Positions 29,097-60,143 of a DNA stretch of 64,000 bases are shown here, piece after piece. The notes under the pieces are model-generated. The model was not told the DNA's origin. It saw nothing but the letters and a program-made list of their open reading frames with translations, and did not search any database. Each line of letters begins with the position of its first letter. Positions within the stretch are counted from its first letter, which is position 1. The DNA lies in NCBI GenBank assembly GCA_934230415.1, contig CAKQEW010000003.1, positions 73,837-137,836 on the forward strand, read 5' to 3'. Source of the DNA: an uncultured Alphaproteobacteria bacterium. GTDB lineage: Bacteria > Pseudomonadota > Alphaproteobacteria > Rs-D84. The translations under genes were made by a program, and so were the position numbers.

Positions 29097-29099
29097 GAG

Positions 29100-31514: not shown

Positions 31515-31520
31515 GAACGC

Positions 31521-36931: not shown

Positions 36932-37073
36932 GTGTTTTTGTTGAAAAAAATACATTTTGTACGAATCGGGAATTTTAATATTTGGTTGTGAAACAGTTGG
37001 TTTTCTGCGGTTTTAAATAAGTTCTTGCTTTAATTTTGTAAAATCTATATGAATCGTGAATATTAGAAAAAAA

Positions 37074-37153
37074 GACCCGTATAAATTCACACGGGTCGGG
37101 TTCTAAGCAATGTAAAAGTGCTTAGCTTGTGGTGCTTTCACCTTACATTGCTT
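37074..37153 (+). promoter_or_regulatory. hairpin plus 11-bp inverted repeat upstream of the CD-NTase gene; candidate operator/promoter region
   Basis: GACCCGT...ACGGGTC hairpin (37074-37097). Perfect IR AAGCAATGTAA (37105) / TTACATTGCTT (37143). Downstream TTGACG-16-TATAAA (37177-37204) and AGGAG RBS before the ATG at 37220. Confidence 0.3.
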
Positions 37154-37219
37154 TATGGGGCCTTGTCAAATGTTTTTTGACGGGGGATGTTTTTGCCGTA
37201 TAAATGTAAGGAGAATAAA

Positions 37220-38074: not shown

Positions 38075-38643
38075 TGATAACAAAATATGATACTTATTTT
38101 ATTGGAGGGATTGCGATAGTTGCGTTTTTTCTGGTGGATTTTATTTCGCCAAAAAATACAATTTTGCAAAATTTAACCGAGTGTATAGGGTGGACATCAA
38201 CCGTATGTTTGGCATCGTACGCTTTGTTTAATAAATATTTGTGGAGAAAATGGCCGATATGTAAGTTTATAAATCGTCCATATGTTGGTGGAATATGGTT
38301 TGGAAATATTCATTATAATTTTAATGGTGTTGCGGGCAAAAAAAGGGTAACAGTGCAAATTCAGCAAGATTTTTATAATATAAAAATTTGTTTAAAAACA
38401 GACATAAATTTAAGTAAAAGTTGTACAGCGGAATATTGTGCCGAAGAATCAAAAATATTTTACGTGTATAAAACGGATCCACATTCAAGAATGAAGGATA
38501 TAAACCCAGTTCAGTATGGGGCTGCACAGATAGTTATAGACCAGAATAATCTTAATAAAATTCGTATTGAGTATTGGACAGATCGTCGAACAAAAGGCTA
38601 TATGGATTTAAAGCGTGTATTGAACAATAAACGGCGTTTTTAG
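38074..38643 (+). CDS. small 2-TM protein with C-terminal beta-rich domain (candidate Cap15/SLATT-like membrane effector)
   Basis: Translationally coupled (TAATG overlap) to the NTase gene. Two N-terminal hydrophobic helices (IGGIAIVAFFLVDFI, CIGWTSTVCLASYALF) and a roughly 120-aa soluble domain. No catalytic motif. Confidence 0.45.
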   Translation: MITKYDTYFIGGIAIVAFFLVDFISPKNTILQNLTECIGWTSTVCLASYALFNKYLWRKWPICKFINRPYVGGIWFGNIHYNFNGVAGKKRVTVQIQQDFYNIKICLKTDINLSKSCTAEYCAEESKIFYVYKTDPHSRMKDINPVQYGAAQIVIDQNNLNKIRIEYWTDRRTKGYMDLKRVLNNKRRF

Positions 38644-38737
38644 AATTTTTTTGCATTTTTTTGGGGTTCTTGTTATTATGGGCATTGAATCCGATGGAAA
38701 TTGGGTTCGGGGCCGTGATAAGCCTAGTTTTAATCCG

Positions 38738-38827
38738 GTGCAGTTTTGCATCGTTATTTGATGTGGTGCAAACTGCACTGTTATCAACCCTGACTCGTAT
38801 GTCGGGGGGCTGTCTGTTATATAACAG
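38738..38827 (+). promoter_or_regulatory. structured intergenic region: 12-bp-stem hairpin plus perfect 14-bp palindrome upstream of mod
   Basis: GTGCAGTTTTGCA...TGCAAACTGCAC (38738-38778) and CTGTTATATAACAG (38814-38827). Lies between the 2TM gene and the Type III mod gene. Confidence 0.3.
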
Positions 38828-38961
38828 GGGAAACCCGAAAGCAGCAGGAATCCAGTGATTAAAACTGATTTTATCAACTCCCCGACCGTCAATTTCAAGA
38901 TTGGCGGTTGTTTTTTTAGGCCGTGTTTCCATTTGGGTTCCGAAACAAAAAGGAACGAGAT

Positions 38962-40857
38962 ATGTGGGATGGGTTGCAGGCGGTACGCAAGGAAATACAA
39001 GAATCTGTTAATACAATTCATGATAACGAAGAAATTCATGATGGGTTTCAATTACGTTTTGTGGGTAAGAGTTATGCCAAATTTGTGACCGGGTTGCCCA
39101 GCGAGACGGTCTTGGTTCCGGATAATGATTGGAATAATCAAGAAAACAATAAAGATAGCCAGAATATATTTATTACCGGTGATAATTTAGATGCGTTAAA
39201 ACATCTGGTGAATGCGTATTCCGGTGCGATTAAGATGATATATATTGACCCACCATATAATACTGGGGCGGATGGGTTTGTTTACAAGGACAGTTTTAAA
39301 TTTTCAGATGATGACCTGAAACAGAAATTAGGGTTTTCGGATACAGAGTTGGCACGTTTGCGTGCGCTGGATGGCAAGTGTTCGCATTCGGCATGGTTGA
39401 CCTTTATGCTGCCACGATTGATATTGGCAAAACGCCTGTTGTCAGACGACGGGGTGATGTTTATCAGTATTGACGATAACGAGCAGGCAAATTTGAAAAT
39501 GATTTGTGATGAGGTGTTTGGTGAGAGTAATTTTCATGTTTGTTTTCCTAGGGTAACAAAGAAAGGGGGAAAATCTTCTGATACGACAGCAAAAAATCAT
39601 GATTATGTGTTAATGTATAAAAAAACATCTTATGCAGATATTGTAGGGGTTGAACACAATGATGACTCTTATTGTAACAAAGATGAATTTTTTGATGAGA
39701 GGGGATATTATAAGTTAAATCAAACTTTAGATTATGATTCATTGGGCTGGGTTAGGTCTTTGGATTATCCGATAGAGATAGAAGGTGAAGTTTTTTATGC
39801 TGGTGGCAGCAAAGAAGAATATAAAAAGAGACAAGAGGGACAACACGGACGTGCGGACTGGGGATGGAGATGGAGTGTAGATTTATTTGATTTTGGTGTC
39901 AAGAATGGATTTATTGAAGTTAAGCGTGGTGGAGTTAGGCCACGTATTTATACAAAAACATATCAAAATGTTAAAATTGAGAAAATTAATAACAGTTATA
40001 AAATTGTCAAAATTGATAGAACTAAACCTTTGTCTACTCTTGAGTTTACAGATAATAAATATTCAAATGATTCTGCTACAAAAGTGATAGCTGAATTGTT
40101 GGGGAAAGGGGTTTTTGAGTATACAAAAGCTCCAGAATTAATATCGTCTTTGATGAAGCTTGTTGCAGGTAATGATTTTACAATCCTTGATTTCTTTGCA
40201 GGGTCGGCGACTACGGCGCAAGCGGTTATGCAGTTGAACAAGGATGACGGTGGTAATCGTAAATATATCATGGTGCAATTGAATGAAGCGGTGAAACCGG
40301 GTAGCGAGGCGGAAAATCAGGGATTTAAGACCATTGATGAAATTTCACGTAAACGTATTAAACTGGCGGCGGAACAAATTGGTGATACGTCTGGGTTTAA
40401 ACACTATAAGTTAGCCAAAGTAACCGATGATTTAATATTAGATAAAATTGATGAATTTGACCCCACAAAGCCCAATCTGTTGTCGGATGATATGGTTAGT
40501 CCGTTTTCAGGTGATGCGCTGGGGACGGGGTTAAATGCGTCTGGATTGGATACTTTATTAACCACATGGATGGTTGATGATGGATATCCGATAAATACCA
40601 AGGTTGAAGAATTTAAATTTGGAAATTATGTTGCATATTCACCGGTGGGGTCACGACGCTTGTATCTGATTTCAGATGGTTTGGATTCAAATGCCACACA
40701 AGATTTGTTGAATAAAATCGGGTGTAATGAAATCAGTGTTCAAACAATCATTATTTATAATCATTCGTTTAATTTTACGATGCTGACCGAGTTAAAAAAT
40801 AACCTGAAGCATGTGTTGGATGATGATAAAAAGATTGAAATTATAGAGAGATTTTAA
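38962..40857 (+). CDS. mod: Type III restriction-modification methyltransferase (Mod, N6-adenine, beta class)
   Basis: DPPYN catalytic motif (IYIDPPYNTGADGFVYKD). SAM-binding FxGxG-like motif (LDFFAGSATTAQAV). Central variable target-recognition region. ATG 38962 with AAGGAA RBS; the tracked ORF starts at an upstream GTG. Confidence 0.8.
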   Translation: MWDGLQAVRKEIQESVNTIHDNEEIHDGFQLRFVGKSYAKFVTGLPSETVLVPDNDWNNQENNKDSQNIFITGDNLDALKHLVNAYSGAIKMIYIDPPYNTGADGFVYKDSFKFSDDDLKQKLGFSDTELARLRALDGKCSHSAWLTFMLPRLILAKRLLSDDGVMFISIDDNEQANLKMICDEVFGESNFHVCFPRVTKKGGKSSDTTAKNHDYVLMYKKTSYADIVGVEHNDDSYCNKDEFFDERGYYKLNQTLDYDSLGWVRSLDYPIEIEGEVFYAGGSKEEYKKRQEGQHGRADWGWRWSVDLFDFGVKNGFIEVKRGGVRPRIYTKTYQNVKIEKINNSYKIVKIDRTKPLSTLEFTDNKYSNDSATKVIAELLGKGVFEYTKAPELISSLMKLVAGNDFTILDFFAGSATTAQAVMQLNKDDGGNRKYIMVQLNEAVKPGSEAENQGFKTIDEISRKRIKLAAEQIGDTSGFKHYKLAKVTDDLILDKIDEFDPTKPNLLSDDMVSPFSGDALGTGLNASGLDTLLTTWMVDDGYPINTKVEEFKFGNYVAYSPVGSRRLYLISDGLDSNATQDLLNKIGCNEISVQTIIIYNHSFNFTMLTELKNNLKHVLDDDKKIEIIERF

Positions 40858-40860
40858 CCG

Positions 40861-43647
40861 ATGAAAAAGCATTTGGAACAATTACCACATCAAGAAGATG
40901 CGATTAAAGCGATAATGGATGCGATGCAAGGATGTCGTGATATTGATAATAATACCGATGTTTATGCAAATCCAAACATTAGTGTAAAGTCAGGGATTGA
41001 TGTGAAAATGGAAACAGGGACGGGTAAGACGTATGTTTATACCCGTATGATGTTCGAGATGTTTCAAAAATACGGAATTAGTAAATTTATTATATTTGTT
41101 CCTTCATTGGCGATTAAAGAAGGCACTAAGTCGTTTATAATGGCTGATTACAGTCGGCAACATTTTTCAGAATTATATGAGAATGTGCATATTGATTTGG
41201 ATGTTATTAATGCAGGTGATTTTAATACTAAAAGGGGTCGCAAAACAATACCGTCTGCGTTAATGGATTTCTTGGAAGGGACACGGAACGACCATAAAAG
41301 CATAAAATGTTTATTGTTGAATGATGCGATGTTGACCAGTAAGTCAATGACCCGTGATGACTATGACCAAACGTTGATAAATTCTTGTTCGTGTCCGATT
41401 GAATCAATTAAGATGACCAGACCGGTGGTTATTATTGATGAACCACACAGGTTTAATAAAAATGGCAAGGCATGGACAGCAATACAGCAATTAAAACCAC
41501 AGTTGATTGTCCGTTTTGGGGCGACTTTCCCGATGATTCAAATAGGTACAGGCAGAAACAAGGTTATAAAGAAGGATTATGATAATCTGGTGTATGACCT
41601 GAATGCGATACAGGCGTTTAATGAAAATCTTGTTAAGGGAATTAATGTTTTGTTTCCAGAGATAGATGCCGTAGATGCAGCATATAAATACAAGGTAAAA
41701 TCAGTTAGTGATAAAAAACTGGTTTTGAATGATGGACGGGCAGACTATGAATTGAAGATAGGTGATAAGTTGCCGGCTGATTTTGAAGGCGGATTGAATT
41801 ATGAAGGTAAAAAAGTGCTGTCAAATGACCTTGAATTGTCAGAAGGGATGGTGTTGATTCCAAAATTGTTTTCGTGTTCATATCAAGAATTATTATTAAA
41901 TCAGGCCATTAATGCACACTTTATGGCGGAACGTGAAAACTGGATACGTGAAAATTCAGGGGTGAATCCAGCTAGGATTAAAACACTTTCGTTGTTCTTT
42001 ATTGATGATATCAAATCGTATCGGTCGGATGATGGGTGGTTAAAATTGACTTTTGAACGCCTGTTAAGAAAAAAGTTAACTGAATTAATAGAAAAAGAAA
42101 CGGTTGCAGAATATAAACAATTTTTACAGGAAAGCTTGAATCATATACCAGAGACACACGGTGGATATTTTGCCGAAGATACAGGTAAAACAGGTGATGA
42201 AGCGATACAGGCAGAAGTGGATGATATCTTGCGTAGTGGGCAAAAATTGTTGCAGTTTAAGGATGCGTCAGGTAATTGGATATTACGCCGATTTTTGTTT
42301 TCAAAGTGGACATTGCGCGAAGGGTGGGATAACACAAATGTGTTCACGATTACCAAACTTAGAACCAGCGGCAGTGAAAATAGTAAAATACAAGAGGTTG
42401 GGCGTGGACTGCGTTTGCCGGTTGATGAAACTGGGAAAAGATTGTCTGATGACGATTTTAGATTGAATTTTATCGTGGATTGGTCTGAAAAGGAATTTGC
42501 AGAAAAACTGCGTTCAGAAATCAATGGTGATGGTGGTGTTGTGGATTCAATGAAGATAACGGATGTTATATTAAATGCACTAGTATCACGAAAATATGCG
42601 GATAATACGGCTGTTGCAAAGGCTAAATTATTGATAGACGGTATTATTGACACTAATGATGCGATATTAAAGGTTGAAGAGCTGTTAAAACTGTTGCCGG
42701 AACAATTCCAATTAAAGAAAAATGCGATTATTACTAATCACTTGGGAAAGAGTGTCGTAAAGCTGAGAAAGAATAATTGGATGCCGCTAAAAGAACTGTG
42801 GGGACGTGTTGTTCGCCGGTATATGATTAAGTATGATAATATTTCGCTCGATGATTTGTTAGAAATGGCAAAAGGGGCAGTGGAAGACAGTTTTACACCG
42901 GCTTTTGGTCGTGTTAAATGTTATATATTGGAAGAACAGGATGGGCAAATGATTGTAAAGTCAACAATCGTTGATACCAGAATTCCATTGGATAAGATAT
43001 CGTATGGCTTGTTTATTCAAAAGCTTTCAAAGCGGACACAGGTTGCGGTAAATGTTTGGCATCAGGCTATGTGTGAAAAGTATCCAAATGGTCTAAAATC
43101 AGATGATTTTAATGTTCAGAGCTTAGAAAATATCATAAATAAATTTTTGAAATCTTTTGCGGATGTGTTTGCACAACGGTTTGAATACAGTTCGTTGGAA
43201 TTTACTGCAAATACCAGTTTGATAAAAAATGGCGAGTTTGTAGATGAAGTTCCACAGGGTGCGCTGGGGACACATTTGGCGGAAGATGCCTGTGTTGAAA
43301 GTTGTTATATGTATGACAAAAAGTGTTATGACACAGAGCCAGAACACGAGATATTAAAATTACAGCCACATGGGGTTGTGACTGCATTTGGTAAGTTGCC
43401 TAGACGTTCTATTAAGGTGCCGTTGTATACGGGTGGGACAGCATCGCCGGACTTTGTGTATGCCATAGAAAGCGATAATGGTGTGAAATTGAACCTGCTG
43501 GTTGAGGTTAAGGCGGATAATGAGCGGCGTAGCGATTCAATTATCACCAAGAGCCAGCAAGAGTTCTTTAGGCAAATAAAAGGTGTTGAATGGCGCAAGG
43601 TTGTCAAGGCTGATGATTTGCGAAGTGCGATAGAAAAATTGGTTTAG
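40861..43647 (+). CDS. res: Type III restriction enzyme Res subunit (SF2 helicase plus PD-(D/E)xK nuclease)
   Basis: 928 aa. Helicase motif I (METGTGKTYV), DEAH-like motif II (VVIIDEPHRF), motif VI region, C-terminal endonuclease segment. Immediately follows mod with a 3-nt gap. Confidence 0.8.
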   Translation: MKKHLEQLPHQEDAIKAIMDAMQGCRDIDNNTDVYANPNISVKSGIDVKMETGTGKTYVYTRMMFEMFQKYGISKFIIFVPSLAIKEGTKSFIMADYSRQHFSELYENVHIDLDVINAGDFNTKRGRKTIPSALMDFLEGTRNDHKSIKCLLLNDAMLTSKSMTRDDYDQTLINSCSCPIESIKMTRPVVIIDEPHRFNKNGKAWTAIQQLKPQLIVRFGATFPMIQIGTGRNKVIKKDYDNLVYDLNAIQAFNENLVKGINVLFPEIDAVDAAYKYKVKSVSDKKLVLNDGRADYELKIGDKLPADFEGGLNYEGKKVLSNDLELSEGMVLIPKLFSCSYQELLLNQAINAHFMAERENWIRENSGVNPARIKTLSLFFIDDIKSYRSDDGWLKLTFERLLRKKLTELIEKETVAEYKQFLQESLNHIPETHGGYFAEDTGKTGDEAIQAEVDDILRSGQKLLQFKDASGNWILRRFLFSKWTLREGWDNTNVFTITKLRTSGSENSKIQEVGRGLRLPVDETGKRLSDDDFRLNFIVDWSEKEFAEKLRSEINGDGGVVDSMKITDVILNALVSRKYADNTAVAKAKLLIDGIIDTNDAILKVEELLKLLPEQFQLKKNAIITNHLGKSVVKLRKNNWMPLKELWGRVVRRYMIKYDNISLDDLLEMAKGAVEDSFTPAFGRVKCYILEEQDGQMIVKSTIVDTRIPLDKISYGLFIQKLSKRTQVAVNVWHQAMCEKYPNGLKSDDFNVQSLENIINKFLKSFADVFAQRFEYSSLEFTANTSLIKNGEFVDEVPQGALGTHLAEDACVESCYMYDKKCYDTEPEHEILKLQPHGVVTAFGKLPRRSIKVPLYTGGTASPDFVYAIESDNGVKLNLLVEVKADNERRSDSIITKSQQEFFRQIKGVEWRKVVKADDLRSAIEKLV

Positions 43648-44303
43648 TCCGAATATACATCTGTGGCGGTTTCGCGTGATTGCATATTTGGATTAAATCC
43701 GTATTTGTTTCCATGCCCGTTGCGTTCTTCGGCGATTGTTTTCTTGATATCTGCTGTTTCTATGGCGAGACTAATTGACCGCCATTTGCGAACAAGTCGT
43801 TCAATACAATGTGTTTTGCGAATTTGTAAGAAATAGTTGATGTCATAAACGGTTTTTCGTTCACGCCAGTGTGTAATTTTATTATGCTTTCGTTGTGGTG
43901 GCAGGTTACTGTTTTGAAGCTCAAGAATCTTTTGGTCGCAAATTTCCATTTGCTCTAAAAACCATTGTTCGGTTTTGTAACATCGTTGAATTTTATTTTC
44001 GTATCTGTCCAGTAATTCAAACGCATCACGTTGTTTTATTTTTCCATCTGCACGTATACGAATGTCATCTGCTTCTAGTTCTTGCCATTCTTTCTTGTGT
44101 TTGGCGTCGTTTAGTGCGGTTTGTATGAATTTTTGTTCGTATTGCTGTTGAAAGCGTTTCAGAAAATCGGACTGGGTCTGTGATGCGGTTTCAAACAATT
44201 TTCCAATGTCTGTGTAGGCAAATTCGTCTGCAGGTTGAAAAGAGTTATTTTGCATAGATTTGGCATATTCTTGGTAAATGTCGTGATTTTGTTGCAGTGT
44301 CAT
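43644..44303 (-). CDS. hypothetical protein (219 aa), island-encoded
   Basis: Convergent with res, and the two stop codons overlap by 4 nt. Q/E/K-rich, no recognisable motif. Confidence 0.4.
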   Translation of the reverse strand: MTLQQNHDIYQEYAKSMQNNSFQPADEFAYTDIGKLFETASQTQSDFLKRFQQQYEQKFIQTALNDAKHKKEWQELEADDIRIRADGKIKQRDAFELLDRYENKIQRCYKTEQWFLEQMEICDQKILELQNSNLPPQRKHNKITHWRERKTVYDINYFLQIRKTHCIERLVRKWRSISLAIETADIKKTIAEERNGHGNKYGFNPNMQSRETATDVYSD

Positions 44304-44434
44304 TTTTTGTATCCTTTCCGGGGCGCACGGGTTGATAAATGATTTAATAAAAAATGATATATGTGTGTTGTTTGGGTATGTAAAATATTGACATGGTTAT
44401 GCCTTTTGTTTTCGAGTGATTATGAGTGTTCTGT

Positions 44435-44629
44435 TTATGGGTTAGGTATGTGCAGATTATTTTCAATCCATGTGTCTAAATCAGCTTTGCGATATCTTAT
44501 GCGGTTACCCCAGCGGACAAATGGAATGGTATTTTTACCATAGTGTCGCCAACAATTAAGTGTTCCGACAGTTGTTCCAAGGTATTTAGCGGCCTGTGCC
44601 TGTGTCATTAAAATAGTGTCTGTGTTCAT
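44435..44629 (-). CDS. alpA: AlpA-family phage/island excisionase-transcriptional regulator (MerR-like wHTH)
   Basis: 64 aa. ILMTQAQAAKYLGTTVGTLNCWRHYGKNTIPFVRWGNRIRYRKADLDTWIENN matches the AlpA/Xis pattern (L....E....G.S..T....R..G.FP.P...G.R...W...D...W). Confidence 0.6.
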   Translation of the reverse strand: MNTDTILMTQAQAAKYLGTTVGTLNCWRHYGKNTIPFVRWGNRIRYRKADLDTWIENNLHIPNP

Positions 44630-44743
44630 GTCTTTCCGTTTCTTTTAAATCTGATTAAATCTTGCTGCGTGTTGGTAATAAAAACAAGTGCAAGCATAGC
44701 TTGCACAAATTGTTATCTTGATGAATTTACATGGTATTTTTTA

Positions 44744-45484
44744 TTAAATTTTGTTTAATGTTTTGAGTGCAGATAATACGTGTTCTGAATCGTTTTCTGA
44801 TAGAAAGCAGTGTTCTTGGATGTATAAAATCTGTTCATCGTGTGGCTTGTTTTTTATAATTTCATAATGTTTATCTTTTAATATTTTTGAAATGGCTTTG
44901 TTTTGTCTGTTTTGTGGTGTGTGAATTATGTGTCCGCCGGCAATGTATTTTGCTTGTTTTTGTATTATTTGGTTAATTTCGGTTATGTCGGCTATAATGC
45001 TACCAAACACGAAAAAGTCGTTGTTGTGAATTGATTTTATAAGTTCTGGTAGCAGGGCAAAAATACATCCCGCCAGTAATGTTTCAGGCATCGCTTTAAA
45101 ATGCTTTTTAAATGTGCGTCGTAATGACGTATAAGATGATTTGTTTATTTGCCAGATGTATTCGGGTGTTTTTATTTGATTGTTTTTGCTTTTGTTGTTC
45201 TTGTAGAACCAGTGGGTGATAGCAATGCGGGTGTAATAATATATTGTGTGTTGTGGGATGTCGTTTGGTTCAATTTTCGGTAGTGTTGAAATTAACAAAA
45301 GACAGGACTTCAGTAGTGTATTTATGTGTGTAAGTTCGTCAGGGGTAAGGTCTGAATTGAATGTATATGCTTTTTGAAAGATTGTGCGGTATGCGTTTAA
45401 CACAGGGGTTTGTATGGTGTGTAATGCTGGATATTTAATAAATATTGTGCTTACATTATTAATGTTAAAATTTTCGTATTTCAT
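44744..45484 (-). CDS. hypothetical protein with AraC-like HTH-resembling segment
   Basis: Start placed at MKYENF (AAGGAT RBS). Segment SSYTSLRRTFKKHFKAMPETLLAGCIFALL resembles the AraC-family signature (S.S.L.R.FKK..G.SP..Y......). Very AT-rich. Confidence 0.35.
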   Translation of the reverse strand: MKYENFNINNVSTIFIKYPALHTIQTPVLNAYRTIFQKAYTFNSDLTPDELTHINTLLKSCLLLISTLPKIEPNDIPQHTIYYYTRIAITHWFYKNNKSKNNQIKTPEYIWQINKSSYTSLRRTFKKHFKAMPETLLAGCIFALLPELIKSIHNNDFFVFGSIIADITEINQIIQKQAKYIAGGHIIHTPQNRQNKAISKILKDKHYEIIKNKPHDEQILYIQEHCFLSENDSEHVLSALKTLNKI

Positions 45485-45558
45485 ACGTATCCTTTTTGCG
45501 AAATATACTAGGTATTGCCGGGATTGCAAGGTTTTTGCTTAATAACAATTAGTGTTGT

Positions 45559-45649: not shown

Positions 45650-45726
<77 letters not shown>

Positions 45727-46721: not shown

Positions 46722-47654
46722 ATGAAAACACCATGGTGGTTCTTGCATAAAACGCCAATTTCATTTGCCTTGTTGCCGGTGTCTTGGGTGTATTATGGTT
46801 TGTCGCGGGCGGTATATGCGATGCGACGAATTGGTGCGTATCAATCCCGGCGGCCGGTGATTTGTATTGGAAATATCCTGGCAGGTGGGGTTGGCAAGAC
46901 CCCAATCGTGCGCGAGGTTGCTATGCGATTTGATGCGCCGGTTGTTATGCGTGGGTATAAAAAGAGTGCGAATACCGGAAATGCCGGGGACGAGGCATTG
47001 ATGCTGGCGCGCAGTGGATTACAGGTGCATACTGGTAATCGTCGTGCGGCGATAAAATTATTGAATAATGCATCAGATTCAGATACCCCAATCGTTATGG
47101 ATGACGGTTTTCAAAATCCGCGTGTAAAGAAAGATGTATCCATACTGGTGTTTGACCAGGGACTGGGGTTTGGTAATGGATTTTTGTTGCCGGCCGGGCC
47201 ATTGCGTGAACCACGCCGTGCGATTTCACGCGCGGATGCAGTGATTGTTATTCGCAGTGCGCATCCACGTAAAAAGTTTAAATTGCCAGATAATATTCCT
47301 GTGTTTTATGCCACAAATCAGACTGTATCCCCATATGACGAAGGTGTGCGTGTTTGCGCATTTGCGGGAATTGGATATCCGAAAAAGTTTTTCAGAATGC
47401 TGAACAATGTTGTTGTATCACGTCGTTCATATCCGGACCATTATCAATATACTGATGCAGATATAGAGAGCCTGTTTGCGTGGGCGGCGCGTAAAAATGC
47501 GCAACTGGTTACCACGGAAAAAGACTGGGTTCGGTTGCCATCATATGCGCGTGACCGTATTAAATATGCGCGTTTGGTTACCAGTGTAGAAGGTGCGTTT
47601 TTTGATTGGTTAAAGGAGAAAATAGACAATGACCACAATCGCAAAAAAAATTAA
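46722..47654 (+). CDS. lpxK: tetraacyldisaccharide 4'-kinase
   Basis: P-loop GNILAGGVGKTP. Size of 310 aa and lipid A context are consistent with LpxK. Confidence 0.85.
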   Translation: MKTPWWFLHKTPISFALLPVSWVYYGLSRAVYAMRRIGAYQSRRPVICIGNILAGGVGKTPIVREVAMRFDAPVVMRGYKKSANTGNAGDEALMLARSGLQVHTGNRRAAIKLLNNASDSDTPIVMDDGFQNPRVKKDVSILVFDQGLGFGNGFLLPAGPLREPRRAISRADAVIVIRSAHPRKKFKLPDNIPVFYATNQTVSPYDEGVRVCAFAGIGYPKKFFRMLNNVVVSRRSYPDHYQYTDADIESLFAWAARKNAQLVTTEKDWVRLPSYARDRIKYARLVTSVEGAFFDWLKEKIDNDHNRKKN

Positions 47655-48570
47655 AATCACGGGTGTTGGGATTCATTCTGGGTTACCGGTGAATATGGTT
47701 GTGAAACCATCACGCGTGCCGGGAATATTCTTTCGCCGCAGTGATATGACGGGCGCCAAACCCATCCAGGCGTTGGCGCAAAATGTTGGTGAAACCAAGA
47801 TGCGCAATACAACAATTGGAAACCCGTCTGGGGCACATGTTCAGACAATTGAACATTTGATGGCGGCGTTATTCTTGGCCGGAATTGACAGCGCGGTTAT
47901 TGATATTGATGGCCCAGAAACACCAATTCTGGATGGCAGTGCGTCTGAATTTTTATCTGTATTTATGGGCAATACAACAGGTGCGCCGACCATGAAAAAA
48001 ATCGTTGTGCGTCGCCCAGTTATTGTTTATGCGCGCGAAATATTGCGAACATTGCCGTGGCATGTACGTCTGCAATTATGGGTGATGAATAAAATCGCCG
48101 GGCGTCGTACGGACGGGTTTGTAAAATTGGCGCCGAATGATGGTAAATCACTGAACATAACGGCGACATTGGTATATCCAGAAAAAATTATTGGTCGCCA
48201 GACGTTTTCATACAGTTTTAATGGCACCAAGAAATCCGTAAATGATTTTGTGAAAAATATCGCGCGTGCACGTACGTTTGGGAAATATTCTGAATGGGAA
48301 TATCTGAAGGCGCACGGAATGGGACGCGGGGCCAGTGAACGAAATGTTATCGCATTAAATAATGCAGGGGATGGGACACTGAATCCGGTAATTTGGCCAG
48401 ATGAATTTGTACGGCACAAGATTATTGATGCAATTGGGGATATGTTCACATCAGGTGGCTTTGTGATTGGTGACCTGGAATCATACAAGGGCAGCCATGC
48501 GTTGAACAACCTGGTGCTGAAAAAATTATTCAGCGACCCGGCGAATTATGATATAATTGAATGCAAATAA
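47629..48570 (+). CDS. lpxC: UDP-3-O-acyl-N-acetylglucosamine deacetylase
   Basis: ITGVGIHSG, HTIEHLMAAL, ILDGSASEF zinc-site motifs of LpxC. Confidence 0.85.
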   Translation: MTTIAKKIKITGVGIHSGLPVNMVVKPSRVPGIFFRRSDMTGAKPIQALAQNVGETKMRNTTIGNPSGAHVQTIEHLMAALFLAGIDSAVIDIDGPETPILDGSASEFLSVFMGNTTGAPTMKKIVVRRPVIVYAREILRTLPWHVRLQLWVMNKIAGRRTDGFVKLAPNDGKSLNITATLVYPEKIIGRQTFSYSFNGTKKSVNDFVKNIARARTFGKYSEWEYLKAHGMGRGASERNVIALNNAGDGTLNPVIWPDEFVRHKIIDAIGDMFTSGGFVIGDLESYKGSHALNNLVLKKLFSDPANYDIIECK

Positions 48571-48580
48571 AGGATTCGTT

Positions 48581-48910
48581 ATGAAAAAGGTTTTATCTGT
48601 ATTGGCGGTGGTGGCGTTGGCCGCATGTGGCGGTATGATAAAAAATGAAAACGGCAGTGAATTTTTAACACAACTGGATGGGGAACCAACGGCGTGTGTA
48701 TATTTGTACAAGATTGAATCAGAAGTATCTGTGTATGATGCAGATGATGCACGCAGATACCTGGAAAACCGTATCGCAGACCAGGCGCGTGGTGGTAACG
48801 CATATTGGATTACCAGTCAACGTACCCGTCCAAATGAATGGGTTGTGTTTGGCCCAGAACGTGCGTTTATTTTAACGGCAAATGTATATGATTGCCCATT
48901 AAATCGTTAA
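48581..48910 (+). CDS. small lipoprotein (110 aa)
   Basis: Lipobox MKKVLSVLAVVALAACGG (LAAC). AAGGAT RBS. Own terminator downstream. Confidence 0.5.
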   Translation: MKKVLSVLAVVALAACGGMIKNENGSEFLTQLDGEPTACVYLYKIESEVSVYDADDARRYLENRIADQARGGNAYWITSQRTRPNEWVVFGPERAFILTANVYDCPLNR

Positions 48911-48933: not shown

Positions 48934-48962
48934 ACGCCTGCTGATTTTTAGCAGGCGTTTTC
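48934..48962 (+). terminator. intrinsic terminator
   Basis: ACGCCTGCT-gattttt-AGCAGGCGT 9-bp stem followed by TTTT. Confidence 0.6.
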
Positions 48963-49000
48963 ATTCTGTGTTTGCGTTGTTTGTAATTTTTATGTTATAA

Positions 49001-50281
49001 TTGCCGTATCAAGCAGAACAGAGAGAGAAATTGCCTGGACAAGTTATTAATATAAACCGCAGAAAGTATGCTGTTGGGCTGTTTTGGCAACCCACAGGTG
49101 CCGGATTTGCCGCGCGTACGTACGCGCGCATGTTGGCGCGCAGCGTTGATAAAAAATTGCGCCTGTATACAGAATATCGTGCGATGGTTGGGCTGGGGTC
49201 ACAACGCGCCGGACATCATTCTGGAATGCCATCGGCCGCGGCCGAGGTTATGGATGCCATGACGGAATTTAATTCGTTTCTGGCGGTGTTTGCGGTTGGA
49301 AATAAATTCTATCTGGTTGCGGTGCGTAATGGAATTGTTTTAGAAGATAAACTGTTTGATAACGCAGACAGTGCGCGCGCCGAATATTCGCGTTTATTTG
49401 AAATTCCAGATTGGGGTGCATTGATTGCACCGGGCGCATGGGGAATGCCGCGTGCGATTGAACGAAATTTATCAGAACTGGTGACGGGAATGGCGCGCGC
49501 AACGCTGCATCCAATCAGTCGTTTGTCCCGTGTTGTGGCATCGGTGGCGATGGTTTTGGTATTCTTGGTTGCGTTGGGAATGTTTTTCCGTGAACCATTA
49601 AAACAAATGATGACGCCGCCCCAGATTGCCCAAATTAATCCAGAATTGGCCGCGGAATATAAACGCCAAATTGCCGAAAAGGACAAGGAACTGGATGCGC
49701 AATTTGATATAAAAAAGCCCCAGCCGATTGTACTGCCGTATGATAATTTGCCGGATGTTGCGATACGTGCAGAAACCTGTTACCAGGCGATTGGGTTTGT
49801 AATGCAACCGATTCCGGGATGGAACCAGGTTTCGGCCGATTGTGGTGAAACACATGCGTCGGCACGTTTTTCGCGCAGTTTTGGAACACTGGCTGATTTT
49901 TATAATGTTGCCACCGGGTTAATGCCGGGCGCGTTTGTTACAGAAAATTCCCCAGATTCAATTTCATTGCGGGTGACACTGCCGGTGGTGGCGTCGCATG
50001 CATCCATTGATGAACGTGATGCGGATACGGTCGTGCGTGCGATTCAGACCGCGTTTCAGGGTATTTCCACAGATGTTGATACGAATGTTGTTGTGGATAC
50101 ATTGACGAATGGAATTGAAACGGTGATCTTGAATATAGTAGAGGTTGCGGCGCAATCAAAACTGACCCCGATGCAGTTTATGAAAATATTTGATGATTTT
50201 GGTGGTGTGTATATGACGCGGTGCGCATGGAACGCCAATAACAGAATCTGGAACTATGAGGTGATAATATATGTCAAATAA
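49001..50281 (+). CDS. bitopic type IVb-pilus assembly protein (BfpC / R64 PilO / GspL-like)
   Basis: 426 aa. A cytoplasmic N-domain of about 170 aa, a single TM segment (VASVAMVLVFLVALGMFF), then a periplasmic domain. Position before a PilP-like gene, ATPase and platform matches BfpC-BfpU-BfpD-BfpE / PilO-P-Q-R order. Start uncertain (TTG 49001 or TTG 49031 with a GAGAGAG RBS). Confidence 0.45.
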   Translation: MPYQAEQREKLPGQVININRRKYAVGLFWQPTGAGFAARTYARMLARSVDKKLRLYTEYRAMVGLGSQRAGHHSGMPSAAAEVMDAMTEFNSFLAVFAVGNKFYLVAVRNGIVLEDKLFDNADSARAEYSRLFEIPDWGALIAPGAWGMPRAIERNLSELVTGMARATLHPISRLSRVVASVAMVLVFLVALGMFFREPLKQMMTPPQIAQINPELAAEYKRQIAEKDKELDAQFDIKKPQPIVLPYDNLPDVAIRAETCYQAIGFVMQPIPGWNQVSADCGETHASARFSRSFGTLADFYNVATGLMPGAFVTENSPDSISLRVTLPVVASHASIDERDADTVVRAIQTAFQGISTDVDTNVVVDTLTNGIETVILNIVEVAAQSKLTPMQFMKIFDDFGGVYMTRCAWNANNRIWNYEVIIYVK

Positions 50282-50969
50282 ATTAAAGTTTGGTTTATTG
50301 TTTGTTGCAATGTTTGCGTTTGTATATGCACCGGCGTATGCAGATGAAATTGTTGATACAGAAATTATTTCTGACACGATTGTCACCGATGATGATGTGG
50401 ATATGGAACAGGTATCTGCGGATGCGGTGGCGAACTATAATGTTGATGGTTCCCTGTTTCAACAGATTACTGATTTGGAACAGGAAAAGGTTTTGATGCA
50501 ATTGGAAAAAGAACGTGCCCAGTTGGATTTGGAACTGGACAGATTGGCGGCAGAAAAAATCAAACTGCATATGGAAATTGATACGCTGTCGGGACGTGCA
50601 GAACAGCAACAACAGGAACTGGAGGCCGCCAAGGCGAAATTAGAGGCGGAAACCGCAAAACTGGAACGTGAAAAAGAAGCGTTACAGGCCGAACCAGTGA
50701 CAAAGAAAGTTTCGGCCAGTGTGGCGGCGTCTGATGATGATATGGCGGACAAAAAAATCACAGATGATTATAAATTGGTGAATGTTTTTGGTGCGGGTAA
50801 TCAATTACAGGCAACCGTTGCAGATTTGAAAACCGGCCAGAATAAAAAGATTTCTGTGGGACGTACACTGGATGGGTTCACGGTAAAGTCAATATCACTG
50901 GATGAAGGAATTGTGTTTGTTGATGCCACAGGTGCGACCCAGACACTGAATGTTTCCAGCACAAAATAA
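50271..50969 (+). CDS. periplasmic coiled-coil protein (PilP/BfpU/GspM-like)
   Basis: Signal peptide MSNKLKFGLLFVAMFAFVYAPAYA. Long coiled coil (LEQEKVLMQLEKERAQLDLELDRLAAEKIKL...). C-terminal beta-rich domain. Overlaps the upstream gene's stop. Confidence 0.4.
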   Translation: MSNKLKFGLLFVAMFAFVYAPAYADEIVDTEIISDTIVTDDDVDMEQVSADAVANYNVDGSLFQQITDLEQEKVLMQLEKERAQLDLELDRLAAEKIKLHMEIDTLSGRAEQQQQELEAAKAKLEAETAKLEREKEALQAEPVTKKVSASVAASDDDMADKKITDDYKLVNVFGAGNQLQATVADLKTGQNKKISVGRTLDGFTVKSISLDEGIVFVDATGATQTLNVSSTK

Positions 50970-50981
50970 AATGGACACATT

Positions 50982-52613
50982 ATGAACGAAAACGATGTTT
51001 TGAATAATATCCCTGTGGAAAACCGACCGTCTGTGCCGGCCGGCCTGGAAACGGCCGAGGTCAAGGATATTGTTGATTATCTGTTTTCAAATGGAAACCG
51101 TTTGATGACGGCAACCGGCGCACCCCAGGAATTACCCAAGGATACCCAGGGTTTGGTTGCGTATTTTTCGGGTGGTGAAATTATTATATCGCGCACGCAT
51201 CGTTATGATGGGCGTGTGTTGGCATTTCTGGATTTGTTGCGCGCGCGCGCGCGGCCAATGCGTATGCCGTTTTATTCTGATTTGGGATTGGTATCGGCGA
51301 TTTATAAATCATATGACGCACGCCTGGGCGGTGGGCCACGCAATGCGCGTGATTATGATAACCAGATGCAGAAAGACTTTGTTGATATCGTTGCCCGTGC
51401 CGCCGCGCAAAAGGTTTCTGATATTCATATAGAGGTTGCCGATCAAACTACAATTTATTTCCGTATTGATGGCAGTATGCAGCCGGTTCTGGAATATAAT
51501 TCCCAGTGGGGTGAATCATTTGTTCGTGCGGCGTTTGCGTCGTCTGATATGTCTAATGCGAACTATGCCCAAAACGAATATCAATCCGCCCAGAAAGATG
51601 GACATACCCCGTTGCGCGGGACCAAGGATTTATACCTGCCACTGGGGATATTAAGTATCCGTATGCAGTTTAACCCGATTGCGTTTGGGTCGCGTTATGT
51701 CGTGATGCGATTGCTGTATGATAATCCATCAGAGGGTATAAAGACCGAGCAAGAATTTGGTGAATACGAACGGCGCCTGTTGATGCGTCTGCGTGCATTT
51801 CCGACCGGATTGGTAATTGTTGCCGGCCCGACCAGTTCTGGGAAATCAACGACATTGGTGCGCAATATGTCGCTGATGTTAAAAGAACACAATTACGAAA
51901 TTAATATGATTACCGTGGAAAATCCGGTTGAACAAAAGATTTTTGGTGCGCACCAAATGCCGGTTGTGAACACCACAAACGAAGAACAACGCGAAGAAAA
52001 ATATACAGAAGCATTGGCGGCGGCATTGCGCAGTGACCCTGATACATTGATGGTTGGTGAAATTCGTACGCTGGCGGCGGCGCAATTGACGGTGCGTGGC
52101 GCGTTATCTGGGCATAATGTTTGGACAACGTTGCATGCGAATTCGGCGATGGCGGCATTAACACGTTTGCTGGATTTGGGGATAGAGCCGTTTAAGTTAA
52201 AAGAAGAAACCATGATGCGTGGATTGATTTCTATGCGTCTGTTTAAAAAATTGTGTCCGTATTGTCGTGAACGTCTGATTGACCATCCAGAACATCCGGC
52301 GTATTCGCGTGTGTTAAATGCGTTTGGTGAATTGGGTCTGCGCCAGGTTTATATTCGTGGCGCCGGTTGCAGTGAATGCAAGGGTACCGGTACCCTGGGC
52401 CGTATCAAGGCAGGCGAAATCATCATAACAAACAGCGAATTTTTACGTCTGGCATTGGCGGGTAACACCGATGGCGCGTTGCGTTATTGGCTGGAAGATA
52501 TGGATGGCCGCACGTTAAAGGAAGCGGCGATGTCGCTGATGTTACAGGGTATAATTGGCGTTGATGAATTGGAACGTTGGGTTGGTTTGTTGGACAGACC
52601 TGGGGTATATTAA
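50982..52613 (+). CDS. GspE/PilB-family secretion ATPase (type IVb pilus extension ATPase, PilQ/BfpD/TcpT-like)
   Basis: Walker A AGPTSSGKSTTL. Asp box and His box regions. Tetracysteine zinc site CPYCRE...CSECKGTG characteristic of GspE/PilB ATPases. Confidence 0.85.
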   Translation: MNENDVLNNIPVENRPSVPAGLETAEVKDIVDYLFSNGNRLMTATGAPQELPKDTQGLVAYFSGGEIIISRTHRYDGRVLAFLDLLRARARPMRMPFYSDLGLVSAIYKSYDARLGGGPRNARDYDNQMQKDFVDIVARAAAQKVSDIHIEVADQTTIYFRIDGSMQPVLEYNSQWGESFVRAAFASSDMSNANYAQNEYQSAQKDGHTPLRGTKDLYLPLGILSIRMQFNPIAFGSRYVVMRLLYDNPSEGIKTEQEFGEYERRLLMRLRAFPTGLVIVAGPTSSGKSTTLVRNMSLMLKEHNYEINMITVENPVEQKIFGAHQMPVVNTTNEEQREEKYTEALAAALRSDPDTLMVGEIRTLAAAQLTVRGALSGHNVWTTLHANSAMAALTRLLDLGIEPFKLKEETMMRGLISMRLFKKLCPYCRERLIDHPEHPAYSRVLNAFGELGLRQVYIRGAGCSECKGTGTLGRIKAGEIIITNSEFLRLALAGNTDGALRYWLEDMDGRTLKEAAMSLMLQGIIGVDELERWVGLLDRPGVY

Positions 52614-52614
52614 T

Positions 52615-53688
52615 ATGACAACCAAACTGGATAAATTATACGCAAAATTGGCATTCAGGTTGAATACTGAAAAGCGTATGGCGCTGGCGCGTAAGTTGGT
52701 GTCGCTGTTGCGTAATGATTTTTCGCTGATGAATGCGCTGGGGCGGTTGGAAATGGTTGAATCAAAAAATGGAACCAAGCCAGATGAACCGTTTGCAATT
52801 GCATTGCGTGAATTTCAGATAAATCTGGAACGTGGGATGAGTTTTTCAGACGCAACCCGTGGATGGGTGCCGATGAATGAAACACTGCTGCTGACGTCTG
52901 GGAATCTGACTGATTTGGTGGTTTCATTGGAAAATATCAGTCGGGCGGTTGATGGTATTCGCCGGATAAAGCGTGCGATGGTTGGCGCGATTGCGTATCC
53001 GCTGTTTCTGTTGGCGTTAACGTTTGGCATAATTATTATGGTTGGGGTGTATTTGGTGCCGCCGTTGGCCGATGTTGCCGGCACAGATATGATTTGGCGC
53101 GGGACGGCGGCATCGCTGATATGGCTGTCGGAATTTGCAATAAAATACTGGTATGGTTTTATGTTGGTATTTGGTTGTGCAATCGGGGTTATTTGGGTCA
53201 GTTTGTCGCACTGGACGGGACCATTGCGTCGCGTGTTTGATAAATTGCCGCCATGGAATATTTATAAAATTCAGGTTTCGGTTGGCTGGCTGATGAGTTT
53301 GTCATCAATGGTTGCCGCCGGTGTTACAATTCCGGATGCAATGCGTATGTTGGCGGATAATTCAAACAGATATCTGCGCAGTATTTTGGACAGTACGTTA
53401 CGCCATATTGCAAATGGTGATAATCTGGGGATGGCGTTGGCAAATACCGGGCGTGATTTTCCAAATGCAGAATTGATTGGGGATTTGGCCATATACGCGG
53501 ATATGAACGGATTTGATACGAATTTGACGCGTGTGGCGAATGATTATTTGGATGAATCAGTGCGCAAAATGGAATCAATTTCAAACGTGCTGAACAGTGT
53601 GGGTATTTTATTAGTGTCTGCGGTTATCGCATGGGTCGTGCTGGGGACATTCCAGATGCAAGACCAAATTACCAGCGCACTGTCATAA
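52615..53688 (+). CDS. GspF/PilC-family inner-membrane platform protein (PilR/BfpE/TcpE-like)
   Basis: 358 aa. Two repeated T2SS-F domains and three TM segments. Starts 2 nt after the ATPase stop. Confidence 0.8.
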   Translation: MTTKLDKLYAKLAFRLNTEKRMALARKLVSLLRNDFSLMNALGRLEMVESKNGTKPDEPFAIALREFQINLERGMSFSDATRGWVPMNETLLLTSGNLTDLVVSLENISRAVDGIRRIKRAMVGAIAYPLFLLALTFGIIIMVGVYLVPPLADVAGTDMIWRGTAASLIWLSEFAIKYWYGFMLVFGCAIGVIWVSLSHWTGPLRRVFDKLPPWNIYKIQVSVGWLMSLSSMVAAGVTIPDAMRMLADNSNRYLRSILDSTLRHIANGDNLGMALANTGRDFPNAELIGDLAIYADMNGFDTNLTRVANDYLDESVRKMESISNVLNSVGILLVSAVIAWVVLGTFQMQDQITSALS

Positions 53689-53692
53689 AAAA

Positions 53693-53714
53693 ATGCCCCG
53701 GTGGGGCATTTTTT
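53693..53714. terminator. bidirectional terminator
   Basis: ATGCCCCGGTGGGGCAT hairpin plus TTTTT. Lies between convergent platform gene (+) and the 189-aa gene (-). Confidence 0.6.
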
Positions 53715-54282
53715 ATACCATAAATGGCAGGTTTTCCAGATTACCTTCGGCGACACGGACATTTACGTCCAGTAACATAAACACGGCATCTGGCGTTTTT
53801 GGGATGGATTCGCTGAATATATCTGTGGTCAGCAGGTGGCTGGTATTCACAGACAGTTTGGTTATCAGGTGGTCGTCATCCAGCAATGTGTAAATCGGGC
53901 CGATATCACGTGGGGTATTTTCACCGATTTCGTGTTCGTTTTGTGGACAACGCAGGCCATCCAGCAGCGTTTTTACGCGGTTATCAATATCGCGACGGGG
54001 CACACCCACAATTTCAGGATGCATCATCTGGATATCAATTTCAGCCAATAATTTCAGATTTGGTGTGATAATTGGGTTCCAGTCAATTCCACCAACGTGA
54101 CGCGTGGTAATCGGACTCTTGGTCGCCCCAGGCATCATATACTGGGTCATATTGTTCCACGGCTGATGTTCCAGCAAGCGTTTCAATTGTGGATGAAACT
54201 GCATACGGATGTCCGCAATGTGTTGTGCGCGCTTTTTAGGATTGATTAAAATATCGCCAAAATACAATAACTTAAATTTCAT
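53713..54282 (-). CDS. hypothetical protein (189 aa), downstream gene of a two-gene operon
   Basis: Start overlaps the upstream gene's stop (ATGA). No recognisable motif. Confidence 0.4.
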   Translation of the reverse strand: MKFKLLYFGDILINPKKRAQHIADIRMQFHPQLKRLLEHQPWNNMTQYMMPGATKSPITTRHVGGIDWNPIITPNLKLLAEIDIQMMHPEIVGVPRRDIDNRVKTLLDGLRCPQNEHEIGENTPRDIGPIYTLLDDDHLITKLSVNTSHLLTTDIFSESIPKTPDAVFMLLDVNVRVAEGNLENLPFMV

Positions 54283-54633: not shown

Positions 54634-57033
<2,400 letters not shown>

Positions 57034-59564: not shown

Positions 59565-60026
59565 ATGTCACGAGAAGTTCAACTGCGTCGCGGTACGGCG
59601 AACGAACATACCACATTTACCGGCGCCGAAGGCGAGGTAACATTTGACACCACGCAAAAAACACTGCATGTCCACGATGGTGTTACGCCGGGCGGAACAG
59701 TATTGGCCAAAAAATCAGAAATCCCAGAAATGGCAAATATTGTTAAATCAGGAATGCCCAGCACGCGTGTGGAAAGTTTAACATTGGTGGCGGGGGTTGA
59801 AACAAACTTTATTGCGCCCGCCGATGGGTATTTTTGCCTGCGTGCCAGTGGCGCAAATGCAATCATAGAATTGCGTAATGAATCGCGCAGTTCGTTCGGG
59901 GTGCGCATGTCTGGGTCATATGCAATGGGATATATCCCGGTTCAACGTGGGGATAAAGTAATGATGTCATCCACCACAACACCGCAATTTTGCAGATTCT
60001 TTTACGCAACCGGTACAACGAATTAA
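59565..60026 (+). CDS. stand-alone protein with phage tail-fibre N-terminal motif
   Basis: VQLRRGTANEHTTFTGAEGEVTFDTTQKTLHVHDGVTPGG matches the conserved tail-fibre/hyaluronidase N-terminal motif LRRGT......G..GE...DT....KIGDG.T. Only 153 aa. Confidence 0.5.
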   Translation: MSREVQLRRGTANEHTTFTGAEGEVTFDTTQKTLHVHDGVTPGGTVLAKKSEIPEMANIVKSGMPSTRVESLTLVAGVETNFIAPADGYFCLRASGANAIIELRNESRSSFGVRMSGSYAMGYIPVQRGDKVMMSSTTTPQFCRFFYATGTTN

Positions 60027-60066: not shown

Positions 60067-60143
60067 TGGTAGCGGGAGAGGGACTCGGACCCCCGACACG
60101 TGGATTATGATTCCACTGCTCTAACCAGCTGAGCTATCCCGCC
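60067..60143 (-). tRNA. tRNA with CAT anticodon (elongator Met or lysidine-modified Ile2)
   Basis: Reverse complement is GGCGGGATAGCTCAGCTGGTTAGAGCAGTGGAATCATAATCCACGTGTCGGGGGTCCGAGTCCCTCTCCCGCTACCA. G1-U72 wobble. Regular D- and anticodon arms. Atypical T-loop (TCCGAGT). Confidence 0.8.

Follow-up and report, generated by a model that had tools for sequence, protein, structure and literature searches.

Between positions 49,031 and 53,688 of the 64,000-nucleotide stretch of alphaproteobacterial DNA analysed here (the window), four co-oriented and tightly spaced open reading frames (ORFs) on the plus strand encode a PilO2 protein, a PilP protein, an assembly ATPase and a membrane platform, and we read them, with a probability of roughly 0.8, as the operon for the inner-membrane core of a type IVb pilus of the PilO2 type (the kind of R64, PAPI-1 and Burkholderia Tfp7) that is fragmented and inherited vertically. 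This figure covers the reading as a whole, that is, the identities of the genes, the splitting of the pilus in this lineage, and the residence of its other parts at other loci. The host is a gut alphaproteobacterium of the GTDB order Rs-D84 (relatives of Candidatus Enterousia, with genomes of ~1 Mb or less), a group in which genomes are mostly below 1 Mb, most biosynthetic pathways have been lost, and a symbiotic or parasitic lifestyle is presumed (PMC12306168). The same paper mentions type IV pili for another reduced lineage and not for Rs-D84, and our literature search returned no description of pili in Rs-D84. Each component is a member of a known family; what is unusual is the minimal-genome gut alphaproteobacterial host, the fixation in the chromosome, the multi-locus layout and an atypical pilin leader.

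Gene families, boundaries and conservation of the unit

The first protein exceeds the curated cut-off of PF06864 (PAP_PilO, E 3.6e-9) and has the build of the PilO2-type subgroup, with an actin-like cytoplasmic domain (residues 1–155), one transmembrane helix (~165–185) and a periplasmic domain of double alpha-beta-beta form. It resembles GspL and GspM at the level of fold only, a likeness that an earlier reading of this DNA from its letters alone (the original prediction) had proposed to check. Directly after PilO2, and before the ATPase and platform as in the rest of the subgroup, comes the PilP protein, which carries a Sec signal peptide and a long coiled coil and has a beta domain at its C-terminus; residues 111–212 match TIGR03021 (pilP_fam) with 41.6 bits against a cut-off of 34.65 (E 2.2e-10). 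PilP also aligns with the protein at the equivalent position of a pilus cluster on plasmid pBSY19_1 of Bosea sp. RAC05, and a sequence search against solved structures returned for it no match beyond coiled-coil noise.

The third protein is a PF00437 (T2SSE) ATPase (E 4.8e-61) with a Walker A motif (GPTSSGKS), an Asp box, a Walker B motif, a His-box-like stretch and a tetracysteine motif (CPYC...CSEC). Its best solved relative is BfpD (8dze; E 1e-74, 255 bits, residues 29–528), and the other solved ATPases, GspE at 148 bits, PilF at about 146–148, PilB at 123, DotB at E 3.8e-12 and likewise PilT, are far behind. VirB11 and TrbB models score 40–47 bits (VirB11 47, with a cut-off of 250), far under their cut-offs of 250–463. 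By such match scores, the place of the window's ATPase is with BfpD, the ATPase of a type IVb pilus. The fourth protein contains two PF00482 (T2SSF) stretches (E 4.1e-23) and belongs to the GspF/PilC platform family. The original prediction had equated the four genes with BfpC-BfpU-BfpD-BfpE and with PilO-PilP-PilQ-PilR of plasmid R64, and had named membership of the ATPase in a family such as VirB11, or small proteins without GspL- or GspM-like folds, as findings that would speak against it; since neither was found, and since families and gene order agree, that reading of the four genes stands.

The genes are as closely packed as had been claimed: PilO2 and PilP overlap by 11 nt, PilP and the ATPase are separated by 12 nt, and the gap between the ATPase and PilR, the platform protein, is 1 nt if PilR starts at ATG 52,615. 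That start is the most likely one, as it matches a relative's platform gene that is called at 357 aa and begins right behind the ATPase stop; the gene caller of the source assemblies places the start at 52,564, and the longest ORF begins at 52,555. For PilO2 the same gene caller chooses TTG 49,031, which gives 416 aa, so that the first protein is bitopic as predicted, though not 426 aa long. The alternative start at TTG 49,001, assumed in that prediction, is unlikely; it is overlapped by a TATAAT box at 48,996–49,001.

Terminators had been predicted on both flanks, and a terminator-like hairpin is present on each (Table 1). The upstream one ends the lpxC-lipoprotein transcript and forms the 5′ border of the unit. 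The downstream one, which the hairpin scan did not list and which was recognized by direct reading of the sequence, is GC-rich, with an A-run preceding and a T-run following, and is common to the platform gene and a convergent gene for a 189-aa protein. The core genes lpxC and gyrB do flank the unit, although neither adjoins it directly: a gene for a 109-aa lipoprotein lies between lpxC and the unit, and two small minus-strand genes lie between the unit and gyrB.

To follow the unit through its relatives we used a one-genome-per-species collection in which 298 stretches encode a relative of PilO2, and compared the best 80 loci, from 80 species. By their record titles, nearly all of these best 80 of 298 are Candidatus Enterousia, “uncultured Rickettsiales” or Alphaproteobacteria metagenome-assembled genomes (MAGs); one relative's circular MAG chromosome measures 958 kb. 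Contigs from gut metagenomes, Hadza samples among them, carry the ATPase in identical form. No matches came from a metagenome scan that used distant relatives of PilO2. In most of the 80 loci the order DUF374-lpxK-lpxC-lipoprotein, PilO2-PilP-ATPase-platform, 189-aa gene-gyrB is kept, and in three (L074, L081 and L052) the unit lies elsewhere, where exactly the four genes remain together. Neither the lipoprotein gene nor the 189-aa gene adjoins the unit in these three loci, and for this reason both candidates were rejected as additional parts; a terminator, moreover, separates the lipoprotein gene from the unit, and the 189-aa gene is missing from the three loci and is otherwise found beside gyrB.

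All four ORFs are intact in each complete locus among the 80 species, contig ends truncating some of the loci, and the tetracysteine pattern CxxC...CxxC is retained in 82 of 82 ATPase orthologues. The ATPase is conserved at about the level of GyrB (Table 1). The ratio of nonsynonymous to synonymous substitution (dN/dS), estimated by the Nei-Gojobori method for eight species pairs, is 0.015–0.06 for the ATPase, 0.08–0.19 for PilP and 0.03–0.12 for the platform (0.03–0.19 for the three genes other than the ATPase taken together), as compared with 0.006–0.03 for GyrB. Judged from these sequence comparisons, the four genes form an operon that is functional, is inherited vertically and is under strong purifying selection.

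Table 1. Positions of the four genes and of the features next to them, with the identity of each protein to its counterpart across 80 related species
Feature	Position	Strand	Length or structure	Family	Identity (%)
lpxC	47629–48570
109-aa lipoprotein gene	48581–48910		109 aa
Intrinsic-terminator-like hairpin	48934–48958	+	11-pair stem, 6 GC pairs, T-rich tail
PilO2/BfpC-family bitopic assembly protein	49031–50281	+	416 aa	PF06864	59–74
PilP-like periplasmic protein	50271–50969	+	232 aa	TIGR03021	54–76
Assembly ATPase, R64 PilQ/BfpD type	50982–52613	+	543 aa	PF00437	82–95
GspF/PilC-family inner-membrane platform, R64 PilR type	52615–53688	+	357 aa	PF00482 (two)	69–84
Bidirectional terminator-like hairpin	53693–53709		stem ATGCCCC/GGGGCAT (7 bp), loop GGT
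189-aa protein gene	53713–54282	-	189 aa
gyrB	54634–57033				about 85–97

Secretin and pilin in related genomes

The original prediction had pointed out that no pilin, secretin or prepilin peptidase gene lies within 4 kb of the unit. This absence extends over the whole 64-kb window, as judged by Pfam searches of its larger non-overlapping ORFs for all three, the peptidase being of the A24 family, and by pilin-motif scans, and over a further 10 kb past either end of the window on the source contig. What the Pfam scan did find are housekeeping genes (among them mreBCD, PBP2, rodA, topA, dnaG, tRNA synthetases, lpxK, lpxC and gyrB), together with an unaccompanied VirB3-VirB4 pair and an island that varies between strains, both described below.

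A secretin and a candidate pilin are present at other places in related genomes. A phmmer search of all fetched loci with the proteins of plasmid R621a and of Bosea matched the C-terminal part of a secretin that lies 9 kb upstream of the unit, where L053 ends. Follow-up of this match brought out a conserved pair consisting of TcpQ (PF10671, E 1.1e-17) followed by a PilN-family lipoprotein secretin (PF00263, E 1.6e-13) of ~540 aa. The pair sits between sufBC and a plsY-dprA-dnaA stretch; dprA is thus near the secretin locus, but dprA is common in bacteria. A metagenome scan recovered 176 matching stretches for the secretin, some on contigs of up to 935 kb, which overturned the idea, raised by a protein-database search, that it is a rare gene confined to short contigs.

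Several smaller observations concern this locus. The sufB-sufC pair that adjoins it in relatives is full, unlike the solitary short SufBD-core gene of the window (27,588–28,259, 223 aa), which lies beside ychF. In two Logan assemblies from one study (L093:8213-9840 and L094:5738-7365) PilN is frameshifted between its lipoprotein signal region and its body, which could reflect faulty assembly or a genuine pseudogene of that strain, and an apparent split of PilN in L092 is a scaffold gap. Two conserved genes without a Pfam match lie directly downstream of the secretin (L137:11537-12900, L114:11393-12964); in several genomes the genes after PilN encode two proteins, one of 120–190 aa with a single hydrophobic segment and the other of ~330 aa, which could be further pilus-associated proteins.

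A candidate pilin of 154 aa is encoded in the rearranged locus L081 (L081:20017-20481), on the same contig as the unit and ~5 kb downstream of it. Its N-terminus reads MIQESG/RSMIEMLGVLAIMGV... and its start, with leader and mature part again divided by a slash, MIQESG/RSMIEMLGVLAIMGVITVGAIG; the protein has Gly at -1, Glu at +5 and two invariant Cys. A strict pilin pattern, which demands F, M or L at +1, missed it on account of its Arg at that position, and a relaxed pattern found it. The protein collection holds 802 homologues, some of them labelled by NCBI as [quoted passage not shown], and the usual place of the gene is among core genes, between uvrC and the pseudouridine synthase gene rluD. 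An AlphaFold2 model of one homologue (P0398) shows an N-terminal helix of 50 residues and a head of beta-sheet; the sole significant Foldseek match of this model is TcpA, the type IVb pilin of the toxin-coregulated pilus (E 8e-4), and Salmonella PilS stands further down the list. In L171 the secretin gene is followed directly by a second pilin paralogue.

In three cases, then, the unit shares its contig with a pilin or a secretin gene: the pilin in L081 and the secretin in L053 and L106. In L106 TcpQ-PilN lies 7 kb upstream of lpxK-lpxC-lipoprotein-PilO2-PilP-ATPase. Because PilO2 is 46% identical to the window's protein in L106, as against 61–62% in L053 and L081 (62% in L053), L106 is the more distant relative, and since it nevertheless has both TcpQ-PilN and the unit, these identities suggest that the secretin is older than the split between the window's lineage and these relatives. 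Among the fetched loci, L106 is also the only one with a pilin or secretin that shares genes with the window region. The window's own species would, judging from its relatives, be expected to carry the pilin and the secretin as well. Of the two options that the original prediction had left, remaining parts encoded elsewhere or co-option into a different machine, the first is borne out in the relatives, in which TcpQ-PilN and the pilin are present at other loci, sometimes on the same contig; it follows that its description of the module as stand-alone is true of the local gene neighbourhood and not of the relatives' genomes.

Known systems, the proposed machine and competing explanations

The closest annotated match that we found is the Bosea cluster, where TcpQ, the secretin, PilO2, the protein in PilP position, the ATPase, the platform, a PilT-like ATPase and, further on, PilV are contiguous; its ATPase is 35.5%, its platform 32% and its PilO2 24% identical to those of the window. 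Bosea and Tfp7 of Burkholderia pseudomallei have the same families in the order O2-P-Q-R, as a variant of R64 in which TcpQ replaces PilL (PMC3984277), and the placement of TcpQ directly before a PilN-family secretin is common to them and to the Rs-D84 relatives. In contrast to these two systems, which are contiguous on a plasmid or in one chromosomal operon, the Rs-D84 genes are dispersed among core genes at three or more loci. PilV, PilM and a PilT-like ATPase were not seen in Rs-D84, the window's PilP is longer (232 aa) with a long coiled coil, and the pilin leader has 6 residues with Arg at +1. The IncI thin pilus of R64 and R621a (pilI-pilV) also has the window's order of PilO2-PilP-PilQ-PilR, in R621a within the cluster pilL-M-N-O2-P-Q-R-S-T-U-V, and the sizes of the proteins are comparable (431, 150, 517 and 365 aa in R621a; 416, 232, 543 and 357 aa in the window). 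The R621a secretin is a PilN lipoprotein, as in the Rs-D84 relatives; identity to the window is 29.6% for the ATPase and 25% for the platform, and is barely detectable pairwise for PilO2 and PilP. R64, however, is plasmid-borne and its pilus serves liquid mating, with PilL, PilM, PilS, PilT, PilU, PilV and a shufflon, none of which was found here. The bundle-forming pilus of enteropathogenic Escherichia coli differs as well, in that it is encoded by a single plasmid-borne 14-gene operon with its own peptidase (BfpP), retraction ATPase (BfpF) and secretin (BfpB).

The mandatory parts of the type IVb pilus class are an ATPase, a platform, a pilin, a secretin and a peptidase (Denise et al. 2019, PMC6668835). 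The assembly ATPase and the GspF/PilC platform are in the window, and the pilin and the secretin, absent from 84 kb of the window's genome, are present in related Rs-D84 genomes. Carriage on a plasmid or an integrative and conjugative element (ICE) with a link to mating (PilV, shufflon), which is typical of the PilO2-type subgroup and does not define it, was not found; the context of the unit is core chromosomal and conserved across the 80 species. In these respects the system resembles type IVa pili, whose parts are scattered over several loci and vertically inherited, unlike single-locus systems (PMC6668835). Type IVa pili, however, use PilM, PilN, PilO (PF04350), PilP and PilQ with PilT, and here we find PilO2 (PF06864) and a PilN-type secretin with TcpQ. 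The same study reported that type IVb pili had until then been described in Gammaproteobacteria only, and added detections in Acidithiobacillia and Nitrospirae.

These comparisons can be put together as follows. The ancestor would have had a contiguous cluster of the R64/Tfp7 type, TcpQ - PilN secretin - PilO2 - PilP - ATPase - platform - pilins, which would since have come apart into three or more pieces, each now surrounded by core genes: TcpQ and the PilN lipoprotein secretin near sufBC and dnaA, the four-gene operon between lpxC and gyrB, and the 154-aa pilin between uvrC and the pseudouridine synthase gene. In the machine that the pieces would form together, PilR would be the membrane platform and would make up the motor with the zinc-binding hexameric ATPase, which would dock on PilR and on the actin-like cytoplasmic domain of PilO2; this domain would hold the ATPase in the manner of GspL with GspE and of BfpC with BfpD. 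The periplasmic domain of PilO2 and PilP would join the platform to the PilN secretin in the outer membrane, whose localisation TcpQ would aid, and ATP hydrolysis would move the 154-aa pilin from the membrane into the growing fibre. Each of these steps is proposed by homology with the Bfp, R64 and type II secretion machines.

The use of such a pilus is a matter of speculation. It would likely serve to attach the bacterium to a partner cell, a host surface or mucosa, and possibly to take up DNA, and either would fit the predicted partner-dependent lifestyle. Rs-D84 and Candidatus Enterousia, which are uncultured, occur widely in the guts of humans and animals, and a dependence on other cells is predicted for them. 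A pilus machine that is kept in genomes of 1 Mb or less, with an ATPase as conserved as gyrase, is a candidate means of contact with a partner or host. It would also show that a type IVb pilus, usually a single-locus and often a plasmid-borne system, can become a vertically inherited, multi-locus chromosomal one, and annotation pipelines with single-locus models would report such split systems as incomplete. One may go further and see in the fragmented pilus a lineage-defining, near-essential organelle of Rs-D84 for partner attachment or DNA uptake, the first chromosomally fixed, multi-locus type IVb pilus, processed by a non-canonical peptidase and paralleling the type IV pili of episymbiotic Saccharibacteria. 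We regard this extension as doubtful; the GyrB-level conservation of the ATPase, the G/RSMIE leader and the failure to find an A24 peptidase are consistent with it and do not prove it.

Several findings weigh against the reading of the unit as the core of a split type IVb pilus. The 84 kb seen of the window's own genome contain no pilin, secretin or peptidase. The candidate pilin has a short leader and Arg at +1, which type IVb pilins do not usually show, and it scores under the cut-offs of the N-terminal methylation models N_methyl and TIGR02532. No A24 prepilin peptidase was found in ~2.8 Mb of fetched related loci, which are highly redundant and cover an estimated tenth or so of one genome, by a phmmer search with R64 PilU and a screen of polytopic membrane ORFs of 130–330 aa (a GxGDxK peptidase pattern also failed on the R64 control and is hence uninformative). 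A PilV-type adhesin, PilM, PilL, a lytic transglycosylase and a retraction ATPase were likewise not seen, and none of the fetched loci has a PilV homologue. Finally, the protein-database search with the secretin fragment gave 64 clusters, all on short contigs, a result that disagrees with the 176-stretch metagenome scan.

Some of these findings could be accommodated if the machine were a secretion pseudopilus, a short periplasmic piston of the type II kind that pushes cargo through a secretin, and not a surface pilus. One pilin homologue is named “type II secretion system protein” by NCBI, the leader is short, the weak N-terminal matches of the pilin include GspH and GspJ, neither a retraction ATPase nor a tip adhesin was seen, and the top NCBIfam model for the ATPase is GspE. 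That model, however, scores 216 bits against a cut-off of 630, the GspF model gives the platform 59 bits against 424, and among solved structures BfpD outscores GspE. No GspC or GspG–K set was seen, nor any other Gsp gene of the type II set (GspC, D, F and G–M beside the GspE equivalog), the pilin model matches TcpA, and PilO2, PilP, TcpQ and a secretin of the PilN family characterise type IVb pili and not type II secretion (PMC3984277). A pseudopilus is thus quite improbable.

It is very unlikely, too, that the PilO2-P-Q-R core has been co-opted to serve another envelope machine, such as a scattered VirB-type type IV secretion system or another export device. An orphan VirB3-VirB4 pair does lie ~17 kb upstream (and ~5 kb from the lpx genes in strains without the integrated island described below), and no peptidase turned up in any searched DNA, nor a pilin or secretin in the 84 kb, but the proximity of VirB3-VirB4 reflects conserved genome order, and the remainder of the case is negative evidence; the co-option that the original prediction had allowed for has found no positive support. 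To our knowledge, no known system uses PilO2 or PilP without pilins. Relatives that flank the window's lineage on either side have conserved TcpQ-PilN and the TcpA-like pilin, which share a contig with the unit in the three cases given above, and PilP, the usual linker between platform and secretin, is kept under purifying selection. Since TcpQ-PilN-PilO2-PilP-ATPase-platform are contiguous elsewhere and the parts are scattered in the relatives, we therefore favour a fragmented pilus over a co-opted module. That the four genes are a decaying relic of a complete plasmid- or ICE-borne pilus cluster is extremely unlikely: the cluster is fragmented, the genome is strongly reduced, and the secretin frame is split in two assemblies of one study, but the ORFs are intact in every complete locus, dN/dS is 0.015–0.19, the ATPase is conserved like GyrB with its catalytic and zinc motifs in all 82 orthologues, and ~4.7 kb of dead genes are not retained in genomes of no more than 1 Mb whose coding density is ~90%.

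Other features of the region

The two immediate neighbours of the unit are conserved in their own right. The 109-aa lipoprotein has a lipobox (LAAC) and no family match, and at 73–90% identity across the 80 species it is more conserved than the product of the neighbouring lpxC. The 189-aa protein is cytoplasmic, has no Pfam or NCBIfam match and is 81–94% identical across species, which makes its gene a highly conserved one of unknown function in a minimal genome. In another strain of the window's species (L002:12827-15069) the platform gene and the 189-aa gene are separated by the precise insertion of a restriction-modification cassette that differs from the one in the window, with MethyltransfD12, N6_N4_Mtase and PDDEXK nuclease genes. 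The terminator region behind the operon thus looks like a hot spot for insertions.

The window itself carries an integrated island of low GC content (0.36–0.40) at 34,925–45,529, beside tRNA-Met (45,650–45,726), which is unrelated to the pilus unit. It encodes a Bro-N protein, a tyrosine integrase, a CBASS-like pair (a weak match to a SMODS nucleotidyltransferase and a Cap15 cyclic-dinucleotide receptor effector) and a type III restriction-modification system (Mod 38,923–40,857, Res 40,861–43,647). The island is missing from L002, whose locus is otherwise identical, and is hence variable between strains.

The orphan VirB3 (98 aa) and VirB4 (804 aa) genes occupy 28,800–32,138 together with a following gene for a secreted 205-aa protein without family match. 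No further type IV secretion genes lie near VirB3-VirB4, and the trio keeps its synteny in many Rs-D84 species; this suggests a type IV secretion system that is scattered in the Rickettsiales style. At 59,565–60,026, beside a second tRNA-Met (60,067–60,143), a 153-aa protein with an Mtd_N domain (the N-terminal domain of phage major tropism determinants) is encoded alone between PagL and heptosyltransferase-like genes, a position that is conserved in relatives.

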